Shown here: positions 5,988 to 47,026 of the stretch, one piece after another | Layout: each line of letters opens with the position of its first letter | Position numbering within the stretch: position 1 is the first letter of the stretch | Virus record (IMG/VR): IMGVR_UViG_3300026274_000001 | Direction: 5' to 3' (one strand) | DNA length: 64,000 nucleotides | Source of the DNA: a virus | Taxonomy: Duplodnaviria; Caudoviricetes | Made by a program: the position numbers and the translations under genes | Notes under the pieces: generated by a model | What the model saw: only the letters and a program-made list of their open reading frames with translations | Told to the model about the DNA's origin: nothing | Database searches by the model: none

Positions 5988-7100
5988 ATGATGACAAACA
6001 TTATTACCCCAGCATCGCAACGAACCGACACAATCAACTTCATCCTGCGTGGGCAACCACAGCACATCGCGCATGAAAAGACCTTTCACGAAGCTGCTAA
6101 GCAATGCGGCACGCTGAACCTCATTTACGGTTGCGCAAACCAACCGCGCGATGATGCAGATCCCTTTTACCAAGAAGAACGTATTGAAGTCGGTAAGCGT
6201 ATTACTGCCAACTTCAAGCAAAAATACAACTGCGACGTGAATTTCCTGTCGGTCGAGAACAGCATCTACAACAATACCCAATGGGGTAACTGGGTTGCAG
6301 AAGCTGTTGCACCGTATGCACACGGTAAGGTAAAGCTGATCGGCCACAACAAGGACGATACTAGCTTCTATCTCAACATGTTCCCGCAATGGGGCGAACC
6401 TATCCTGCTGCCGCAATTCGACGTTCTGGATGCGAGCACAATTCGCAACCTGTACTTCAGCAAGAAAAACAACCTCGACTTCTTCCGTCATGTTTGCCCT
6501 GATGCGACTATCAGCTTCTTGGAAGAGTTCATGCACACTGAGGCTTACGACTACATTGTCGAAGAAGCCAACTACATCAAGAAGTACCGAGAACAAACCC
6601 GTGCTGGTCAAAAGTATGCACCTACGTTCCAAACGGGCGACGCAATTGTTATCAAGTCTAATCACGTTCTGATGATTCAACGCCGTTCCCAACCAGGCAA
6701 GGATCTGTGGGCATTCCCTGGTGGCTTCCTGCGTTCAGAAGATGAAATGGTCAATGGTGAATTGAAGAAGGCTGATCTTGACGTTGTCGATACTGCTCTT
6801 CGTGAACTTACGGAAGAAACTCGTATCAAGCTTCCGCCAGCACTGTTGCGTGGTAGCATTCGTGCTGAAAAGCGCTTTATGCACCCGAAGCGTTCCCGTC
6901 GTGGTCGCGTGACTACCACTGCGCAATTGATCGTTTTAGATGATTCGGAATATAAGGGTTTCCCGAAGGTCAAGGCGCGCGATGATGCAAAGCAAGCTGA
7001 ATGGGTTCACATGAACGACGTAAAGCGTCGTGAGTCCTTCGAGGACCACTTCGATATGCTGCTCTGGGCAAGGGCAATGACTTCTGACGTTCGACTTTAA
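5988..7100 (+). CDS. nadM: bifunctional NMN adenylyltransferase / ADP-ribose pyrophosphatase (NadM-Nudix)
   Basis: N-terminal RGQPQHIAH (HIGH-like), LIGHNKDDTSFYLNMFPQW, DASTIR; C-terminal WAFPGGF..TALRELTEET, DDAKQAEW, FEDHFDM. Confidence 0.92.
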   Translation: MMTNIITPASQRTDTINFILRGQPQHIAHEKTFHEAAKQCGTLNLIYGCANQPRDDADPFYQEERIEVGKRITANFKQKYNCDVNFLSVENSIYNNTQWGNWVAEAVAPYAHGKVKLIGHNKDDTSFYLNMFPQWGEPILLPQFDVLDASTIRNLYFSKKNNLDFFRHVCPDATISFLEEFMHTEAYDYIVEEANYIKKYREQTRAGQKYAPTFQTGDAIVIKSNHVLMIQRRSQPGKDLWAFPGGFLRSEDEMVNGELKKADLDVVDTALRELTEETRIKLPPALLRGSIRAEKRFMHPKRSRRGRVTTTAQLIVLDDSEYKGFPKVKARDDAKQAEWVHMNDVKRRESFEDHFDMLLWARAMTSDVRL

Positions 7101-8342: not shown

Positions 8343-9857
8343 ATGATCACAACAAAACTTCTCAACGACAACTTCTGCTTGGCTGCAGATGCCTATAAGT
8401 TCATGCACTATGCTCAGCTCCCTAAGGGTCTGAAGTTTGTGCAGAGCAGCGTGGTTCCACGCAAACCCAACGCGCATACTGATATGCTGGTAACTGCCGG
8501 TATTCAATACCTTGCAAAGTACCTTGCAAGCGTGCGTATCGACGAACATGATGTCGATGAATTGGTGTTAGAAGCAGGACAACAAGGCTACGAAGTTAAC
8601 GAAGCTAGCTGGCGTGATATGATTGCTCGTTTCGGTGGTCGTTTGCCCCTTCGTATTGAAGCATTGCCTGACGGTACGGTCGTTCGCCCGAACACCGCGG
8701 TCCTGACTATTGTCAATACCGACCCAGCATTTTACTGGTTGCCCTCGTATGTTGAAACAGTCGTCCAACGTATTATCTGGAAGTTTATGACTGTTGCTTC
8801 GATCAGCCGCTCGCTTTACAGCTTGCTGATGCAATATGCAATCAAGACTGGTGCAAATGTGGATATGGTTGTATATCAACTCCACAACTTTGGCGATCGC
8901 GGTGCTGACGCCGACGAAGCTGCACAATGGGCGGGAATCGCCCACGCAATGGTGTTTTCTGGCTCAGACAATTCCCGCGCCAATCCAAATATCAAGCGTC
9001 TTTACAACACTAAGAAGGCCTACACCTCATCTGTCGATGCAACTGAACATAGCACGATGTGCGCTAATTCTGATGCCAAGACGAAGAATGACTACGGCGC
9101 TGCTGTAATGCTTGTTGAGCGTCTGGAAGAAGCGGTTCGTCGTGCAGGTCGTGGTATTGGTGTTCCCGTGGTTAGCGGCGTAGTTGATACCTACAACCCA
9201 TATCGTTTTATCCGTGACTACTTGGGTTCTCCCGAACTGAAGGCGCGTATCGAAGCGTGTGGTCGTGCAGGCGGTAAGCTTGTTCTGCGTCCTGACAGCG
9301 GTGTTCCAGAAATCGAAGTGCCTAAGATCCTCGAGATTGCAGGTGAAGTATTTGGTTTCTCGGTCAACTCGCTGGGTTACAAGGAACTGGTTCCATATAT
9401 CGGCGTGCTGCAAGGCGACGGTATTAATCAAGAATCAGTACCACGTATTTTGGTAGCAACTTGCGATGTAGCTCGCTGGTCGTTTGGTAGCTTCCTGTTT
9501 GGTATGGGTGGTGGTTTGGTGCACGAAGCTGGACGTGATGAATTCTCATTCTCACAAAAGGCAACGGCTATGACGTTCAATTCGGACCCAAGCGTTAATG
9601 GTGACTGGATTGATCTGTTGAAGGAACCTATTACCGACACCAAGAAGAAGTCACTCACTGGATACATTATCAATGTGAAGGACGCTGATGGCACTATTCG
9701 CAGTATCAATCGCAAGAACTGGTACGGTGAAGCTATCGTGTACAACACTGTTGTTTTTGAAAACGGTGAAGCATTTGTTGATGACGTCAACTTTGACGAT
9801 GTTAAGGCTCGTGCTGTTGAAGGCATTAGCAAGACGGAACTGAAGCTGGCTGCATAA
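8343..9857 (+). CDS. nadV: nicotinamide phosphoribosyltransferase (NAMPT/NadV)
   Basis: DAYKFMH, LHNFGDRG, ATEHS, VVDTYN, LRPDSG, LQGDGI, FGMGGGL motifs. Confidence 0.92.
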   Translation: MITTKLLNDNFCLAADAYKFMHYAQLPKGLKFVQSSVVPRKPNAHTDMLVTAGIQYLAKYLASVRIDEHDVDELVLEAGQQGYEVNEASWRDMIARFGGRLPLRIEALPDGTVVRPNTAVLTIVNTDPAFYWLPSYVETVVQRIIWKFMTVASISRSLYSLLMQYAIKTGANVDMVVYQLHNFGDRGADADEAAQWAGIAHAMVFSGSDNSRANPNIKRLYNTKKAYTSSVDATEHSTMCANSDAKTKNDYGAAVMLVERLEEAVRRAGRGIGVPVVSGVVDTYNPYRFIRDYLGSPELKARIEACGRAGGKLVLRPDSGVPEIEVPKILEIAGEVFGFSVNSLGYKELVPYIGVLQGDGINQESVPRILVATCDVARWSFGSFLFGMGGGLVHEAGRDEFSFSQKATAMTFNSDPSVNGDWIDLLKEPITDTKKKSLTGYIINVKDADGTIRSINRKNWYGEAIVYNTVVFENGEAFVDDVNFDDVKARAVEGISKTELKLAA

Positions 9858-16796: not shown

Positions 16797-17038
16797 CTGG
16801 AATCGCACACATAGTTTATTTGGTTAAATTCGATCTCGGATACTACGCCGATACTCAGTTTGATTACGATTGGAGTTACACTACTGACGTGTATGCTGCG
16901 AAGCGTTATAACTTAGAAGATTTGGCACACGAACGAGGCGAATGGGGAATTGGTTTGATACAAAATGATCTACAACCAATTCCAACCTCCTATGTGGTTG
17001 AGCAGTTCAAAATTACAACTATTATGGAACCTGTTTGA
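16793..17038 (+). CDS. hypothetical protein
   Basis: coupled ORF. Confidence 0.65.
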   Translation: MTGIAHIVYLVKFDLGYYADTQFDYDWSYTTDVYAAKRYNLEDLAHERGEWGIGLIQNDLQPIPTSYVVEQFKITTIMEPV

Positions 17039-17811
17039 TGACGCTTGCGGAAGCACACGCTTATGGTATTGATGTAACGGAAATTGGTGATAAGCTTTAT
17101 TTTGTAAAAGGCGGTCAACTGGTAGAACGATCGTGGATGAAACCAGAATATGATGGTGATAATTTCATCCCTCGTTCAGGTACAAACGCATACTGCTATC
17201 ATCTGATTTCACCAGAAGAATCAGCCAAATATGCGTTCGATGCCGTCTATTTTACCGATGACGTAATCTTGAAGGACGTAATGACTTTTATGCTGGCCAA
17301 TCCAGCATATCAAGCCATAATTGGCTGTCATTGCGTTGAAGTGAGTGAGCGTGGATTACAGCGCTTTATTCCCGTTGACAAACTTGACGGTGACATAGAA
17401 TACCTGGAAGTATACAGTTTGGAAACAATTGACAGCCATTCGGTTTACTATTGTGATGACTCTGAAGTTCAACAAGAATTACCAGCAATTCAAGGCTCTA
17501 GGTTCCCAAGCTTTCATGGTATCGGTCGTGTTCTTGAGAAAGATCAAGAACCTTATAAAAAGGGTGATCGTATTCAATGGGGGATATCAGCAAGCAATGC
17601 GGAAACTTTAGCTGCATTACCATTGCGTTTGAATCATACACATAACATTTATGATGAACGTATACCATTCAGCAGTTCTACAGAATATAAACCGTTGTTG
17701 ACTTACACCAGACTGTATTCAATGTTGGATGTATTAAAGGCAATCTTTTGGGAAATGACCTGGTATGGTCCACCAAAAGATCTTGATGATCTGGATGAAA
17801 TTGACATTTAA
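17035..17811 (+). CDS. hypothetical protein
   Basis: 258-aa ORF, followed by terminator. Confidence 0.75.
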   Translation: MMTLAEAHAYGIDVTEIGDKLYFVKGGQLVERSWMKPEYDGDNFIPRSGTNAYCYHLISPEESAKYAFDAVYFTDDVILKDVMTFMLANPAYQAIIGCHCVEVSERGLQRFIPVDKLDGDIEYLEVYSLETIDSHSVYYCDDSEVQQELPAIQGSRFPSFHGIGRVLEKDQEPYKKGDRIQWGISASNAETLAALPLRLNHTHNIYDERIPFSSSTEYKPLLTYTRLYSMLDVLKAIFWEMTWYGPPKDLDDLDEIDI

Positions 17812-18067: not shown

Positions 18068-18200
18068 TTTGTGTGTCTCTGTGTGTATTGATGAAACTAT
18101 TTCATCAACCATGTTTATACAATTGGCAACCAGGTTAGTCAATATTGCACTTGATAGTGCATCAATTATCTAATATATTGGTAGTCAATTGAAATGAACT

Positions 18201-18863
18201 TTGAGGACTCGGCACATGAGCTATATTGATACCGTGGATCATTCATACGTAGGGCGCCTATTTGGCTGGCCAGTATATCATCCTCTGGGTGTTTACACTG
18301 ACGATGAGTTTGATGCTGATCCGTCCAATCTGGTTATTGGTGGTGGTAGCGGTGAACATCCGGGTATGGTGATCAAATCGCTTGACGCTTGTGTCTTACA
18401 GTATATTGAATTTTGCTATGAATATGCCAAGCTAGAAGAGCCTGACTGGCTCGGGAACCTGTACAATGAAGTGGCCGATTCCTATTTTAATCTGTTTGAT
18501 CATAAGTGGCCAATGCAATCAGTGTCAACTTTAGCTATCAAGGTAAAAGCCGCATTTGAAGAAGCGGTGGCCGACAAGATTAAGAATCCACCTCATATTG
18601 AAAATATGCTTGCGATCATGATTGGTGAATTTCTGTATTATTCTGCCCGTCGCTTGCTATCTGAAAAAGTGAATATAGCATTGATCGAACAGTTCAATGA
18701 CGTTTGGGCATTTTCGTTTTTTGAGGTTATCACTGTACCTGCAAAGGGTTATCCATCAAGTGGTCGTCGTCTAGGTATGGAGAATGGTGAGAGTAAGGTT
18801 ATTTGGGGATTGCGCTTCGAAGACGAGCAAAAATATCTTGATGAACATTCATCGAACTGCTAG
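18201..18863 (+). CDS. hypothetical protein
   Basis: 220-aa ORF; TTGATA-17-TATATT upstream. Confidence 0.75.
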   Translation: MRTRHMSYIDTVDHSYVGRLFGWPVYHPLGVYTDDEFDADPSNLVIGGGSGEHPGMVIKSLDACVLQYIEFCYEYAKLEEPDWLGNLYNEVADSYFNLFDHKWPMQSVSTLAIKVKAAFEEAVADKIKNPPHIENMLAIMIGEFLYYSARRLLSEKVNIALIEQFNDVWAFSFFEVITVPAKGYPSSGRRLGMENGESKVIWGLRFEDEQKYLDEHSSNC

Positions 18864-18866
18864 AGT
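18838..18866 (+). promoter_or_regulatory. sigma70-like promoter for AspRS leader
   Basis: TTGATG-17-TAGAGT; predicted start site ~18873. Confidence 0.55.
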
Positions 18867-18893
18867 GGTGGTATTAAATACAGGATGAACACT

Positions 18894-18965
18894 ATGTTTC
18901 TTTTGAACGACGATAATCGCGATAATATGTTGCCTTTGGGTGACAGGCGATTGCTCGTGCGTTAA
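18894..18965 (+). CDS. Asp/Asn-rich attenuator leader peptide MFLLNDDNRDNMLPLGDRRLLVR (not in ORF track)
   Basis: SD CAGGA 8 nt upstream; codons AAC GAC GAT AAT CGC GAT AAT. Confidence 0.75.
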   Translation: MFLLNDDNRDNMLPLGDRRLLVR

Positions 18966-19014
18966 AACGACAACACTGACATCCAAAGGCGCTCCGTAAA
19001 ACGAGCGCTTTTTT
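18906..19014 (+). promoter_or_regulatory. transcription attenuator (pause 1:2, antiterminator 2:3, terminator 3:4)
   Basis: 18932-18946 pairs 18976-18990 (14/15); 18986-18994 pairs 19003-19011 + T6; 18906-18920 pairs 18947-18963. Confidence 0.8.
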
Positions 19015-19048
19015 GTTGACTATCTGAATCACACTTGAGGAAAATAAA

Positions 19049-20329
19049 ATGAGAGAACTACCAACAACCGTACACGAAGCCCCACACTATATTGGGCAAA
19101 CGGTAACCATGTATATGATTCTGGAAACCCTACGCGATCAGAAACACATGCAATTCATCATTGGACGGGAACGCACTGGCACTTTGCAGCTTGTGATTCA
19201 AAAGTCCAAAGTCGCAAACCATGCCGATATCTCGGAACTCCAACCCGGCTCTACATTTGCTGTGACTGGTACACTAGTCGAAGCTACCCAAAGCAAGACT
19301 CAGGGTATCGAGATGCAGGTTGATAGTGTTGAGATTTTCTCCAAAGCATGGCCGCGCCCTATCACGGAGGAGTCAGGTATTGAAGCACGCTTTGCTCATC
19401 GAGTCGTTGACTTGAAACTTCCAAAGTGGCAGCTGATGATGAAAATCAGAAGTGCCTTTGAAATGGGATGTCGCGAGTACGCACTGGAAAACGGCTGTAC
19501 GGAGTTGCATACTCCGAAGCTGATGGCCAGTGCCAGCGAAAGCGGTTCACAAGTATTCAAAGTTCAGTACTTCGACAAGTTTGCTTATTTGGCCCAGTCA
19601 CCACAGTTTTATAAGCAGATGGGCGTAGCATCAGGCCTTGATGGCGTGTTTGAAATTGGTCCAGTGTTCCGTGCTGAAGAAAGCCATAGCTCCCGCCACA
19701 TGACTGAATTTACTGGCCTGGACGTTGAATTTGCTTGGGCATTTACCACTCAGGATGTGATGACCTTTGAACTTCAAATGCTGCGTCGTGCATTTGAAAA
19801 GTTGCGTCCATTTGCTGCGCAAGCCAAAGAACTGTTTGGCGTTGAACTGCCTGAACACCCAGAATGTCGATTCATGACGCTTGCTGAAGCAAAGGAAATT
19901 GTCAAAGAACGTGGTATTATTCTTCCTGCCTCTGTGGACTTGTCTGACGAAGCAGAACGGGTGCTATATGAAATTACCGGCATTGACTTGATCTTTGTTA
20001 CCGACTATCCAATAGGTAAGCGTCCGTTCTATCATATGTGGGACAAAGAAAAGGGTATCACCCATAGCTTTGACTTGATCTTCAAGGGTATTGAAATCAC
20101 CACTGGTGCGTTGCGGGAACATCGACTCGATATCTTAACTGCGCAAGCAATTGAAAAGGGTGTTGACCCCAAGTCGATCGACCATTACCTTGACAACTTC
20201 CGCTATGGCTGTGCTCCTCATGGTGGGTTCGGTCTGGGTGTTGAACGTGTGATTGCAAAGCTCCTAGGGCTCTCTAGTGTGAAGGAAGCTGCATTTGTTC
20301 CTCGTGACCCAGATCGCCTCGTTCCATAA
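19049..20329 (+). CDS. aspS: aspartyl-tRNA synthetase (archaeal/eukaryote-like short type; possibly non-discriminating)
   Basis: OB-fold RDQKHMQF..RERTG; YLAQSPQFYKQ; FEIGPVFRAEESHSSRHMTEF; GIEITTG; PHGGFGLGVER; FVPRDP. Confidence 0.92.
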   Translation: MRELPTTVHEAPHYIGQTVTMYMILETLRDQKHMQFIIGRERTGTLQLVIQKSKVANHADISELQPGSTFAVTGTLVEATQSKTQGIEMQVDSVEIFSKAWPRPITEESGIEARFAHRVVDLKLPKWQLMMKIRSAFEMGCREYALENGCTELHTPKLMASASESGSQVFKVQYFDKFAYLAQSPQFYKQMGVASGLDGVFEIGPVFRAEESHSSRHMTEFTGLDVEFAWAFTTQDVMTFELQMLRRAFEKLRPFAAQAKELFGVELPEHPECRFMTLAEAKEIVKERGIILPASVDLSDEAERVLYEITGIDLIFVTDYPIGKRPFYHMWDKEKGITHSFDLIFKGIEITTGALREHRLDILTAQAIEKGVDPKSIDHYLDNFRYGCAPHGGFGLGVERVIAKLLGLSSVKEAAFVPRDPDRLVP

Positions 20330-20389
20330 ACTGCTTGATACGATGCTCATATGAACTTATCATGTGAGCATCATTTTCATGGAGGTATT

Positions 20390-30183: not shown

Positions 30184-30753
30184 ATGGAGAGCATAATGGA
30201 TAACAAATACGGTAGCATGTTGATAAACGGGAAACGAGTTGATGAGCTGACTTTGGAAATTCCGTTTATGAATGTAGCCCAATGTTATTCATTCTCCAAT
30301 GCCATACTCGATATGAGTGCTGCTGCTGAGGACGTACAAGAAGGTGGATACAACGAAACTATCGAAGGGTTGTCTGAGCCTTTCGAGGCGGTGATTGCTC
30401 GTCAGGAAGTATTGGCGGTTGCTACTGCTGCCGAAGTAGAACGTGGTATCGACTCTGGACGCCTTATTAAGGTTGATCATACCGTTTATGAACGTAGCGT
30501 TCACGCGTTGCTGGCTATGCGTTCTATGTTCGGAGACTTGGTTACTGACGTGTTTGTCGATCAACAGTATTTGGAGCACCAGGCTCTCGAGAGCCGTGCA
30601 TTTGGTGAAGAACGAATTATTAAAGCAGAAATCAACAACGACGAGCAACTTGAAATGGATATCAGCGGTCTTAATATGATCGTGCAATTCGCCGATGGCC
30701 GTCGTATCGAAATGACCAATTCTGAATGGGGTCACTTCAAGCGTATCGAATAA
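30184..30753 (+). CDS. hypothetical protein
   Basis: follows family promoter; start may be 30196. Confidence 0.7.
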   Translation: MESIMDNKYGSMLINGKRVDELTLEIPFMNVAQCYSFSNAILDMSAAAEDVQEGGYNETIEGLSEPFEAVIARQEVLAVATAAEVERGIDSGRLIKVDHTVYERSVHALLAMRSMFGDLVTDVFVDQQYLEHQALESRAFGEERIIKAEINNDEQLEMDISGLNMIVQFADGRRIEMTNSEWGHFKRIE

Positions 30754-30761
30754 GGAAAAAT

Positions 30762-31559
30762 ATGTTTTGGGTCTTACAGAAAAACCTCTTTAACGAGCAA
30801 GCCTTTATGAGCTTGCTCGAGCAGCTTGAACGGCAGGATGTGCCACATGAGATTGTGAGCCTAGTGCCGTTTATCCAACAAATGACGCCTGACATCAATC
30901 CTGAAGGACTGGTGTATGTATGCGGTTCTACGGGTATTGGTAAGGTTGCCCGTAAGAAGGGCTGGACCCCTGGCTACTTTGATGACAACTTGGATTACGA
31001 GTTGGTCATGAAAAATTACGGTGAAGACTGCTTGAACTGGCGTGGTCACGTCACGACAATGCGCGATGCCAGCAAGGAGTTACTGGTAAACCCAGAAGTA
31101 AAGTTCTTTACGCGCCCTTGCTCTGATACGAAATCGTATTCCGGCCAAGTAATGGAATGGAAAGAATTCGACGAATGGCGAAACAAAGTAGTCGCACTGT
31201 CGGAAGATGGCGAAGATAACTCGCTCACCACCTTGCAGCCTGAAGATAAAATCGTTATCGCCCCGTTGACTACCATTTATTCCGAGACTCGTTTCTATGT
31301 TGTTGATGGCGAAGTGGTTACTGGCTCCCTGTATAAATTTGGTAATCAAGTACAGTACAGCGATGATGTGATGCCTTTCATTAAGGACTTTGCCCAGGAA
31401 AAGGTAAATCAGTGGCAGCCAAATCGAGCATTTGTGCTTGACATTGCAGACACTGATGAAGGTCCAAAAGTGATCGAAATCAACGCCATCAATTCGTCAG
31501 GCTTTTATGCTTGTGATATGGGCAAGTACATCGACGCTATTAATTCAATGGAATTTTGA
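30762..31559 (+). CDS. ATP-grasp protein (DUF4343 / R2K-like) 1
   Basis: FFTRPCSDTKSYSG, ETRFYVVDGEVVTGSLY, AFVLDIA, VIEINAINSSGFY. Confidence 0.85.
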   Translation: MFWVLQKNLFNEQAFMSLLEQLERQDVPHEIVSLVPFIQQMTPDINPEGLVYVCGSTGIGKVARKKGWTPGYFDDNLDYELVMKNYGEDCLNWRGHVTTMRDASKELLVNPEVKFFTRPCSDTKSYSGQVMEWKEFDEWRNKVVALSEDGEDNSLTTLQPEDKIVIAPLTTIYSETRFYVVDGEVVTGSLYKFGNQVQYSDDVMPFIKDFAQEKVNQWQPNRAFVLDIADTDEGPKVIEINAINSSGFYACDMGKYIDAINSMEF

Positions 31560-35504: not shown

Positions 35505-36314
35505 ATGAAAACAAATCCAACATGGCTAGTTCAAATAACAAGTAGGCACGACACTACTATCAAGCAGGAAGTTGAATCACTAACTGAACTTGGCCTACCT
35601 TGGAAAGATTTTGGGGTAATTCCATTTACGACCGACATCACGGGACTGGATGCGCCTTATACCAACTTTGTTGTGCGTGGTGGCACCAAAGTATTGTCCA
35701 TGATTACAGATGATCCTACCTTGTGGTTGAAGGATGGTGTCTTTTATGACAAGGATAAGTTTGACCAGAATCAATACCAGTCCCTGGGTTTGCCACTCTT
35801 AAATGCTGATGCAGAGTTCTTCAACCTCCCTGATTTTCCGTACCTGATGTTTGAGCAGGAAATGTTCGTGAAGCCTTCCAGTGACTTGAAAGCATTCACA
35901 GCCGGAATATTGGAAGTAGGTCAGAGCGTGCAGGAGTTTATTGGCGCACAGATGCATCAATCGAATGCATTCTCAGAAATCATTCTAGCCGCTGAAGCAA
36001 AGACGGTGATTGATGAGTACCGCTTCTTTGTACTAAACGATCAAGTCATTACTGGGTCACAATACCGGGTTAACCAGCAACTGCGCTATACCGCACTTAC
36101 AAATTCTGCGGAACATGTTTCAGTGCTAAAAGTTGCACAAGATTACGCAAAATTGTATCAGCCTGCCGAGGTATTCACGCTTGATATTGGTAAGACGGTA
36201 GACGGGGTCTACTCTATTATAGAATATAACTGTTTCAATGCATCAGGTTTGTACGCTTGCGATGTGAATCTGTTGTTTACTACAATCAGTAATTTTGTAA
36301 GGTCTCGTGTTTAG
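35505..36314 (+). CDS. ATP-grasp protein (DUF4343 / R2K-like) 2
   Basis: MFVKPSSDLKAFTAG, EYRFFVLNDQVITGSQY, VFTLDIG, IIEYNCFNASGLY. Confidence 0.85.
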   Translation: MKTNPTWLVQITSRHDTTIKQEVESLTELGLPWKDFGVIPFTTDITGLDAPYTNFVVRGGTKVLSMITDDPTLWLKDGVFYDKDKFDQNQYQSLGLPLLNADAEFFNLPDFPYLMFEQEMFVKPSSDLKAFTAGILEVGQSVQEFIGAQMHQSNAFSEIILAAEAKTVIDEYRFFVLNDQVITGSQYRVNQQLRYTALTNSAEHVSVLKVAQDYAKLYQPAEVFTLDIGKTVDGVYSIIEYNCFNASGLYACDVNLLFTTISNFVRSRV

Positions 36315-46193: not shown

Positions 46194-46487
46194 ATGAGTC
46201 ATAACTCTGGCTACCGACCAATTGCCCATTCACCGGCTAAGGAAGGTGAATCAACCTGGTCTGATCATGGAATCGATTTGACCCCGCCTATTACAACCTC
46301 CGGCCGTCTTCATGTAATTGCACAGGAAATTGCAATCTTGGAAGAACGACTGCAAGTGGCTGTTGAACTTTTGAAACGTGCACGCAGCGAATTTCTGCAG
46401 ACTGAACCGACATTCTCGGATGAGCTTGACGACGAAATGGTTGCGTTTATCAACACGAACACCACAATTAAGCAAGTTGCTCGGTAA
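46194..46487 (+). CDS. hypothetical protein
   Basis: SD AAGGA. Confidence 0.65.
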   Translation: MSHNSGYRPIAHSPAKEGESTWSDHGIDLTPPITTSGRLHVIAQEIAILEERLQVAVELLKRARSEFLQTEPTFSDELDDEMVAFINTNTTIKQVAR

Positions 46488-47026
46488 TGGATAAGCTATC
46501 AAAAATTACGGCATTTTTACTGCTGTATCATAATTATCACCGCACGGCGGACGACTACAAACTAGTTGGGCCGGTGGTAGCTAAGCTATTGCTTAACGAC
46601 GTGGTGACTCTCCTTCGTGATGAAGGGACGGAAATTCATGAGCTTGAAGAATACCATTATGGTATGACTCAGTTGATTGCTGACTGTGCTCTATTGCAAG
46701 CACACGGTTATATTGAGTCTCGACATGTCAAGAAGATCCTCAAAGACTGCTGGAATTATCCCTATGTGGGGTTTGATCTAGTGCAGTATGCCCATGCATC
46801 TAAAATCTTTGATGAAGCTAGTGGTGACTCTCTTATGATTGAAGTGCGTGCGGTACTGGCTGATGTCAACTATGCGAAAACTGTCGAACAGGTGAAGGGT
46901 GGTAGGGACAAAGCCATCGGCGCTCTCGTTGGTGCAGTAATGAAGAAGGTGAAGGGCGATCCCAAGCAGATTAAAGAAATGCTGGCAAGCGAAATGGGCG
47001 TAACCCTATCAGCATTAAGCAGTTGA
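46487..47026 (+). CDS. GatB/YqeY C-terminal (tRNA-binding) domain protein
   Basis: VRAVLA..VEQVKGGRDKAIGALVGAVMKKVKGDPKQIKEML resembles GatB tail. Confidence 0.75.
   Translation: MDKLSKITAFLLLYHNYHRTADDYKLVGPVVAKLLLNDVVTLLRDEGTEIHELEEYHYGMTQLIADCALLQAHGYIESRHVKKILKDCWNYPYVGFDLVQYAHASKIFDEASGDSLMIEVRAVLADVNYAKTVEQVKGGRDKAIGALVGAVMKKVKGDPKQIKEMLASEMGVTLSALSS

Follow-up and report, generated by a model that had tools for sequence, protein, structure and literature searches.

We report that a 64,000-nt stretch of viral DNA (IMG/VR record IMGVR_UViG_3300026274_000001; the whole stretch is called the window below) carries, immediately upstream of its aspartyl-tRNA synthetase (AspRS) gene aspS, what is likely a ribosome-mediated leader-peptide transcription attenuator of the trp/his/pheST type, gating the phage enzyme by reading the supply of Asn- and Asp-charged tRNA. 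By sequence, folding and comparison, the predicted parts of this device are present and mutually exclusive, they are conserved through change, and they associate exclusively with AspRS genes. The synthetase would probably be turned on only when ribosomes stall at Asn or Asp codons. The original prediction, made from the sequence of the window, had invoked the trp/his/pheST logic, and comparison across phage and bacterial relatives backs it. Our results favor a mechanism that is classical in kind but new in its amino-acid specificity and in being carried by a virus, and that bacterial orthologues share.

Leader ORF, competing helices and terminator upstream of aspS

The elements of the locus are collected in Table 1. 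The −10 hexamer of the leader promoter shares nucleotides with the stop codon of the preceding gene (18201-18863); with a score of 8/12 this promoter lies below the threshold of our generic promoter scan and was therefore missed there. Downstream, the transcript presents what a ribosome-mediated attenuator is expected to have at its 5′ end, namely a Shine–Dalgarno sequence, a start codon and a short open reading frame (ORF), the translation of which is predicted. A second in-frame ATG at 18885 has no usable Shine–Dalgarno sequence. The ORF holds tandem cognate codons, with Asn or Asp (N or D) specified by six of seven consecutive codons. Among 1073 small ORFs (15-60 codons, six frames, whole window), the leader is the only one with at least six N/D codons in seven consecutive, against a background N+D frequency of 10.8%.

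Table 1. Coordinates of the predicted leader elements, aspS and an upstream promoter-like site in the window
Feature	Position	Strand	Description
Upstream promoter-like site	18151..18179	+	TTGATA-17-TATATT, 10/12 in promoter scan
Sigma70-like leader promoter	18838..18866	+	−35 TTGATG 18838-43, 17-nt spacer, −10 TAGAGT 18861-66
Shine–Dalgarno sequence of leader ORF	18882..18885	+	AGGA, 8 nt 5′ of ATG 18894
Leader ORF	18894..18965	+	23 codons + TAA, MFLLNDDNRDNMLPLGDRRLLVR
Control codons	18906..18926	+	AAC GAC GAT AAT CGC GAT AAT = N D D N R D N, codons 5-11
Region 1	18906..18920	+	5′ strand of helix 1:2 (anti-antiterminator); first five control codons (N D D N R)
Local hairpin	18928..18945	+	UGUUGCC-UUUG-GGUGACA, 7 bp; sequesters region 2
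Region 2	18932..18946	+	5′ arm of antiterminator; from folding and comparison
3′ strand of helix 1:2	18947..18963	+	from RNAfold minimum-energy fold
Region 3	18976..18990	+	3′ arm of antiterminator; last 6 nt = first 6 nt of terminator 5′ arm
Intrinsic terminator	18985..19014	+	10-bp stem (18985-94:19003-12), 8-nt loop, T6 19009-14
Shine–Dalgarno sequence of aspS	19037..19041	+	GAGGA, from sequence
aspS	19049..20329	+	archaeal-type class IIb AspRS, 426 aa

Three mutually exclusive helices (1:2, 2:3 and 3:4) follow from this arrangement, with control codons in region 1. The minimum-energy structure of 18866-19020 calculated with RNAfold consists of helix 1:2, in which 18906-18920 pairs with 18947-18963, and the terminator (−45.2 kcal/mol, z = −3.2), and none of 200 shuffled sequences folded as well as the native one. 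The terminator by itself is worth −13.3 kcal/mol and ends 35 nt before the aspS ATG. When the RNA was folded from region 2 to the end of the terminator 5′ arm, it adopted the antiterminator (18931-46:18976-91, −27.7 kcal/mol); the competing local hairpin amounts to −7.7 kcal/mol in the window and −10.5 kcal/mol in its bacterial version. Leader and terminator arm together form a duplex (−23.5 kcal/mol) more stable than expected from dinucleotide shuffles (−13.7 ± 2.7 kcal/mol), of which 10/2000 reached so low a value. Pairing of region 2 with region 3 appeared in the nascent-RNA folds of 10 of 11 sequences, with 6-8 nt of the terminator 5′ arm sequestered. These findings reproduce the layout of the original prediction throughout: its promoter (TTGATG-17-TAGAGT, 18838-18866) and its ORF led by a Shine–Dalgarno sequence (23 aa, 18894-18965) are borne out in every coordinate and in codon content, its helix 1:2 recurs in the RNAfold structure, its antiterminator (18932-46:18976-90) folds and overlaps the terminator 5′ arm, and its terminator (18986-94:19003-11 plus T6) lies where it had been placed.

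The same prediction saw no separate promoter before aspS. We likewise recognized no credible candidate between the 10-bp, T6-tailed terminator and the gene. There is one weak promoter-like match, TTGACT-18-GAAAAT at 19016-45; its transcription start would fall at or after the aspS ATG, and it is not conserved in relatives.

The proposed mechanism would operate as follows. Initiation at the leader promoter, or read-through from the upstream gene, would yield a transcript with the 23-codon ORF. With Asn-tRNA(Asn) and Asp-tRNA(Asp) plentiful, the ribosome would reach the stop codon at 18963-65, the local hairpin and helix 1:2 would re-form, the terminator would fold, and RNA polymerase would halt at ~19014. 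Were either charged tRNA scarce, the ribosome would stall within 18906-18926 and hold region 1; with its A site on 18906-18917, region 1 would be covered and region 2 free. Free region 2 would then capture region 3 before the terminator 3′ arm has been made, so that no terminator forms and aspS is transcribed.

Homologous leaders in phages and bacteria

The whole module is kept in contigs whose AspRS is 97% (L170), 85% (L001-L004) and 79% (L005) identical to that of the window. The leader promoter is identical in L170 and reads TTGACG-17-TAGATT in L001/L003 and TTGACA-17-TAGAGT in L005. AGGA precedes the leader start at a matching distance in L001/L003, where the start is ATGATG, and in L005, where it is GTG. 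The leader peptides of these phage relatives are (M)MFLFNNDNRDNMLPLGDRRLLIR or VFKFNNDNRDNMLPLGNRRLFV.

The closest cellular AspRS proteins (55-68% identity) belong to Pandoraea communis, Burkholderia spp., B. alba and soil or peat metagenome contigs, and their genes have ordinary neighbors (ureEFG, ABC transporters, LacI and TetR). Homologous leaders occur at the Pandoraea and Burkholderia loci and at eight metagenomic bacterial loci (e.g., ...LNNNLSPLGDRRLFVC and ...LNQHNNPMSPLGDRSVFDC), with leader ORFs such as MYCFSRFSLNNNLSPLGDRRLFVC, MSRFSLNQHNNPMSPLGDRSVFDC, MQSFSRNRRNNNMSPLGDRIVFGR and MHRISRIDLNNNVSPLGDRRLFAG. In all, 4 phage-like and >10 bacterial loci have homologous ORFs in the same frame and with the same stop position. 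The bacterial control run is Asn only, either AAU AAU AAU or N-Q-H-N-N. AAU is expected to be the rarer Asn codon in 67%-GC hosts, which recalls CUA in leuL. The bacterial terminator lies 30-45 nt before aspS and shares its core with that of the window (AAAGGCNCUC...GAGNGCC followed by a U-run).

Region 2 (GCCUUUGGGUGACAGG) is identical between the window and the bacterial leaders, as are the local hairpin and the position of the stop codon. Across 15 sequences it is nearly invariant, synonymous sites included, and the AspRS proteins have diverged to ~61-68% identity. Because region 2 is invariant at synonymous sites despite this divergence, selection appears to act on the RNA and not on the peptide. 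The same observation bears on the proposal that ..LPLGDRRL.., the conserved peptide, has a function of its own, be it as a small protein or as a ribosome-arrest peptide. PLGDRRL is indeed kept from phage to Burkholderia; however, its conservation reaches synonymous third positions, pointing to RNA-level selection, and four other leader types (described below) have unrelated C-terminal halves. We regard a functional peptide as most improbable.

The partner of region 2 differs in register between lineages. In the phages the 3′ arm is CUG-a-CAUCCAAAGGC, in Pandoraea-like loci CC-GUCA-ag-CCAAAGGC and in Burkholderia CCUG-cu-UCAC-a-CCAAAGGC; each of these arms forms 14-16 bp with region 2, taking in the first 6-8 nt of the terminator 5′ arm, at −22 to −32 kcal/mol. 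A single consensus structure would therefore misrepresent the antiterminator. Compensatory changes are found among the lineages, of which the homologous set contains only ~7 that are independent. In helix 1:2, a three-pair swap distinguishes phage AAUCGC:GCGAUU from bacterial AAUAAU:AUUAUU. In L005, a G-to-A change in region 2 is matched by a C-to-U change in region 3 (G:C to A:U), and the same change turns a U:G into a U:A in the local hairpin, the fourth pair of which is U:G in window-type phages, C:G in bacteria and U:A in L005. In L001, region 3 differs by two transitions, each of which converts a Watson–Crick pair to a wobble (U:G and G:U). Pair 7 of the terminator stem is G:C in phages, A:U in most bacteria and U:A in Burkholderia, and pair 11 is A:U or G:C.

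The genes upstream of the leader differ in L001, L005, Pandoraea (ureG), Burkholderia and L220 (a more distant contig, described below), and leader and terminator are kept in each. Because upstream genes differ between contigs, the module travels with aspS. This result bears on a simpler account of the locus, in which the hairpin and T6 tract are a constitutive terminator or insulator of gene 18201-18863, the mini-ORF is fortuitous, and aspS is expressed by leaky read-through or from an unrecognized promoter. Such an arrangement would suit a hairpin that lies 120 nt after the upstream gene, the weak TTGACT-18-GAAAAT match and RNA contigs that cross the terminator from 18212 (see below). We nevertheless judge it very improbable: the module goes with aspS and not with the upstream gene, the weak match would initiate too late and is not conserved, and the complementarity between region 2 and the terminator arm has been kept through compensatory change.

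Absence of the leader from homologous loci, or a leader not rich in N/D codons, had been set beforehand as an outcome that would refute the original prediction. The outcome was the opposite. Every clade locus that we examined upstream has a short ORF with Asn or Asn/Asp codons in tandem, a terminator and an alternative pairing by which the 5′ arm of that terminator is sequestered. The exception is a phage-like lineage (L218/L219, 306-2763, on a 208-kb contig) in which a gene for the RNA ligase RtcB ends 1 nt upstream of aspS; no leader precedes aspS there.

We also scanned 241 million metagenome records for a pattern composed of region 2 and a downstream AAGGC, and obtained 110 matches, of which 80 were listed. 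Among the matches listed, nine bear a terminator, and 9/9 of these lie directly upstream of an AspRS homolog. The remaining listed matches are attributable to chance, having no terminator hairpin downstream and no AspRS homolog. An exact-motif scan of IMG/VR gave 8 matches, all of them chance occurrences inside coding regions. A single-protein scan of IMG/VR found no relative, and a plasmid search returned distant AspRS relatives only.

In a quick maximum-likelihood tree, the 118 closest AspRS proteins form a well-separated clade (Shimodaira–Hasegawa-like approximate likelihood ratio test, 100). Window-type phage AspRS proteins form one group (support 92) that sits at an unresolved base, beside a large clade containing the named Burkholderia and Pandoraea proteins. 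Since a homologous leader is present on both the phage and the bacterial sides, gene and leader have moved as a unit, whether by descent or by transfer, and neither phage nor bacterium emerges from the AspRS tree as the donor. On this comparison the module is not a phage invention but a widespread regulon common to bacteria and phages, a regulatory RNA shared along with its gene between bacterial and phage genomes. This sharing goes beyond the original prediction, as do the local hairpin over region 2 and the transcripts that enter from upstream (see below).

Leaders of unrelated sequence before other AspRS genes

N/D-rich leaders that share no sequence with that of the window precede several further AspRS genes. 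Contigs L220 and L224, which represent another jumbo-phage lineage (33-34% GC, AspRS 68-69% identical to that of the window; L224 is a 181-kb IMG/VR viral contig), encode a leader MTIRFIADNNDNF... with a DNNDN run, behind TTGACT-17-TATAAT and GAGGA. They keep the conserved terminator, and masking of the N/D codons by a ribosome is predicted to let leader GAGUGUC pair with GGCACUC of the terminator arm. In L220 (358-6556), RtcB and a polynucleotide-kinase-like protein (phrog_415/420) flank the attenuated AspRS; together with L218/L219, this makes a recurrent link of the AspRS clade with RNA-repair genes.

A second type is found in a 29%-GC lineage (L209-L212 and L217; contigs up to 2.2 Mb, AspRS 57-59% identity), the leader of which, M..QFL.NNVDNNNDAHFMCWQVMC, contains NNVDNNND. 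This lineage has the same terminator and a weaker alternative pairing. Nearly all of its neighboring genes have no Pfam or PHROG match.

More distant AspRS genes provide further cases. In a Latescibacteria metagenome-assembled genome (MAG; OX638329.1, ~1230-1400; L016), the gene for an archaeal-type AspRS (46% identity) follows a leader ...GNNNDDNNPIRRRAGPA with NNNDDNN (full leader MHIHYFQIAQFTGNNNDDNNPIRRRAGPA) and then a strong, 10-bp terminator. This was the only N/D leader among 78 distant outgroup loci (relatives at ≤48% identity, from Actinobacteria and others, collected by a scan dominated by the generic QSPQFYK motif), which suggests an independent invention or a very old origin. Two phages of 642 and 635 kb (L221, LR756502.1, 425775-428234; L222, LR745206.1, 336079-338532; AspRS 36-38%) encode leaders MRKIIKLKDDRYLWTDCLAD and MKNIRLNDDRFLLTNCKADW with DD or NDD runs. 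Each leader is accompanied by a terminator, the Asp codons lie inside helix 1:2, and the antiterminator covaries with the terminator (UGACUG:CAGUCA versus CUAACUG:CAGUUAG). By our filter, none of 16 other AspRS loci in IMG/VR, giant-virus MAGs included, has an N/D leader. The aspS of Microcystis phage MaAM05 encodes a bacterial-type enzyme and has a 99-nt upstream gap. As judged from these sequences, attenuator logic recurs independently before AspRS genes in leaders of unrelated sequence, the Latescibacteria leader included, and each of them combines a terminator with an alternative pairing that depends on stalling.

The recurrence helps to evaluate two further explanations. In the first, the leader is translated and the terminator is a general sensor of translation coupling that reads any trailing ribosome, and hence global translation capacity, and the N/D codons are a by-product of an AU-rich helix 1:2. 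The bacterial run AAU AAU AAU is in fact one strand of that helix (AAUAAU:AUUAUU), so that pairing alone could favor these codons. We find this account improbable, because in-frame N/D runs occur, always before AspRS, in six types of leader that are unrelated in sequence and differ in their pairing partners, because substitutions within the run among relatives are N-to-N synonymous (AAC/AAU) or N/D exchanges, and because other small ORFs of the window have no comparable run.

In the second, a protein or tRNA that binds the leader RNA operates the switch, either by AspRS autoregulation of the thrS kind or through a T-box-like sensor. Autoregulation by aminoacyl-tRNA synthetases and T-boxes are established for other synthetase genes, and the unusual invariance of region 2 and the local hairpin is what a binding site would display. 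However, the invariant hairpin is absent from the leaders of L220, the 29%-GC lineage, the Latescibacteria genome and the huge phages, which have in common the N/D ORF and the terminator logic, and the hairpin loop (UUUG) contains no GUC or GUU anticodon mimic. A T-box would show a stem I specifier loop and the T-box antiterminator sequence (RF00230); no Rfam family, T-box included, was detected at its gathering threshold anywhere in the window, and a search of 18800-19100 with matches accepted up to E = 10 returned only two, chance-level microRNA and small-RNA families (E 0.66 and 0.95). We consider control by RNA binding very unlikely.

The enzyme, its transcription and the reach of the proposed attenuator

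The product of aspS matches Pfam families PF00152 (231 bits) and PF01336. It scores 415.3 bits against the NCBIfam equivalog NF003483, aspartate--tRNA(Asn) ligase (cut-off 353), and 344 bits, below the cut-off of 368, against the older model TIGR00458. Its best solved relatives are Thermus AspRS2 (1N9W), which is non-discriminating, and then the Thermococcus enzyme. In an alignment of 15 sequences of the AspRS clade, Q81-S82-K83-T84 are invariant, followed by G86 and E88. The phage AspRS probably makes both Asp-tRNA(Asp) and Asp-tRNA(Asn), and it is the NCBIfam match and the regulatory logic that argue for such non-discriminating activity. Asn and Asp, the amino acids read by the leaders of the phage, L220, the low-GC lineage and the Latescibacteria genome, correspond to the two tRNAs that a non-discriminating AspRS charges. 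The mixed codons would report on both products of the enzyme, Asp-tRNA(Asn) being the precursor of Asn-tRNA(Asn), and the Asn-only bacterial leaders would make sense if the limiting role of the enzyme there were to supply Asp-tRNA(Asn) to GatCAB. Synthesis of Asn on tRNA through a second, non-discriminating AspRS is established in Deinococcus and Thermus (PMC4206432). The window also encodes a stand-alone GatB_Yqey protein of 179 aa (46487-47026, + strand; PF02637, 47.4 bits, cut-off 27) that comprises no amidotransferase catalytic part and could relate to the handling of Asp-tRNA(Asn).

Expression data came from four soil metatranscriptome runs in the form of assembled contigs, from which neither 3′ ends nor levels can be read. 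In three of them, coverage by contigs ends between 17883 and 18083 and resumes at 18202-18212, a break that fits a predicted terminator hairpin at 17815-36 and the upstream promoter-like site of Table 1. The contigs suggest that RNA, not contaminating DNA, was sampled, and they outline a transcription-unit boundary between 17815 and 18212. From 18202-18212 they extend across gene 18201-18863, leader and terminator and on into aspS. Because they bridge the terminator, it must be read through to some extent, and transcription arrives in part from upstream. In two runs contigs end at 20335, beside a hairpin/promoter element 3′ of aspS. One run (X7) contains a separate contig starting at 18885, with ~2× the mean depth of the upstream contig; this start is compatible with the leader promoter, although only weakly indicative of it. 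The element 3′ of aspS (20335-20372, + strand) is a 13-bp hairpin with an embedded promoter-like TTGATA-17-TATCAT.

Several points weigh against a ribosome-mediated attenuator, or limit it. We infer leader translation, transcript ends at ~19014 and Asn/Asp-dependent read-through from sequence, and the metatranscriptome contigs show neither a 3′ end at ~19014 nor an Asn/Asp response. At equilibrium with the full terminator, most homologs still favor the terminator, and a kinetic, cotranscriptional argument is therefore needed. A ribosome that stalled on the final two control codons (18921-26) would also occlude part of region 2; stalls there may be less effective, so that perhaps fewer than the seven codons count. 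The antiterminator is weak in L005 and amounts to only ~5+4 bp in the 29%-GC lineage, and the bacterial leaders have no obvious Shine–Dalgarno sequence. Finally, a His and a Pro, anticodon-loop residues described as allowing AspRS2-type enzymes to recognize tRNA(Asn), are taken to mark a non-discriminating archaeal-type AspRS; the aligned phage residues are Glu26 and Thr84, and this rule may not transfer to the clade. The NF003483 match above cut-off fits the original remark that mixed Asp and Asn codons would suit a non-discriminating AspRS.

Among known systems, the closest parallel to the attenuator is pheST (pheM) of Escherichia coli, a leader-peptide attenuator of an aminoacyl-tRNA synthetase gene with tandem cognate codons, 1:2, 2:3 and 3:4 helices and a terminator just before the gene. 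It differs in having Phe codons and in belonging to a chromosomal enterobacterial operon, whereas the present locus reads Asn and Asp, controls an archaeal-type class IIb AspRS, is phage-borne and has no sequence similarity to pheM. Several amino acids are mixed in one control run in thrL (Thr and Ile) and ilvL (Ile, Val and Leu), and trpL, hisL and leuL share ribosome stalling and antitermination. All of these serve biosynthetic operons, unlike a synthetase gene; Asp-tRNA(Asn) is, however, a substrate of tRNA-dependent Asn synthesis, which places the locus between the two classes. The leaders of archaeal-type aspS genes in Burkholderiales are homologous, with identical region 2 and the same hairpin, stop position and terminator core, but they read Asn only, use other registers of the antiterminator 3′ arm and lack a clear Shine–Dalgarno sequence. 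Firmicutes T-boxes of aspS and asnS likewise have tRNA charging as input and a terminator-versus-antiterminator choice before a synthetase gene as output; unlike the locus, they bind uncharged tRNA directly and have no leader ORF.

In a literature search of incomplete coverage, we found no description of an Asn/Asp leader-peptide attenuator, of attenuation of archaeal-type aspS (Burkholderiales included) or of a phage-borne synthetase attenuator. In a Shewanella screen for RNA motifs, aspS appears only within a generic “tRNA synthetase leader” category. The class for which we found no description would comprise Asn or Asn+Asp leaders before archaeal-type (AspRS2-like) aspS genes, with members in several phage lineages, in Burkholderiales and in one Latescibacteria genome. 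Its Asn-only bacterial members provide independent regulatory evidence that this enzyme clade serves the supply of Asn-tRNA(Asn), a link that may assist in the annotation of AspRS duplicates.

The reason for which large phages encode aminoacyl-tRNA synthetases is still debated as an open question. The locus suggests that the phage AspRS is not constitutive but stands behind a sensor of Asn and Asp decoding, as an on-demand supplement to host charging. A more specific role is conceivable, in which the N/D leader in phages signals that tRNA(Asn) and tRNA(Asp) have been damaged or depleted, and AspRS is one arm of a response that repairs and recharges tRNA. The trigger could be host anticodon nucleases acting on queuosine-family tRNAs, or a collapse of charging during infection. 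The hints are circumstantial (RtcB upstream of aspS in L218/L219, RtcB and a kinase-like gene around aspS in L220, and the stand-alone GatB-tail protein), and we think this role rather unlikely; the host-defense or charging-drain physiology offered in the original prediction stays conjectural.

The window looks, from its sequence, like part of a jumbo phage, with small genes arrayed in long runs on a single strand. An identical AspRS sequence occurs on a 223.7-kb contig, and an 85% relative on a 224.4-kb contig. No tRNA genes were found in the window. PHROG matches in the window comprise a nicotinamide phosphoribosyltransferase, a NadR-like cytidylyltransferase/Nudix protein, phrog_850 and two phrog_7313 paralogs. 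The phrog_850 protein is closest (~50%) to proteins of 350-380-kb jumbo phages of Erwinia, Serratia and Pectobacterium.

Gene 18201-18863, which has no family match, is extra in the window, inserted between 17035-17811 and the leader; in the 85% relative L001, the leader promoter directly follows a 257-aa gene (2029-2802) that is the positional counterpart of 17035-17811. Two paralogous proteins of ~270 aa (30726-31559 and 35505-36314, + strand) match phrog_7313, for which no function is assigned, with E ~1e-58. A NAD+ salvage pair is encoded on the + strand by 5988-7100 (NadR-like cytidylyltransferase/Nudix, phrog_395/1198) and 8343-9857 (nicotinamide phosphoribosyltransferase, phrog_448).

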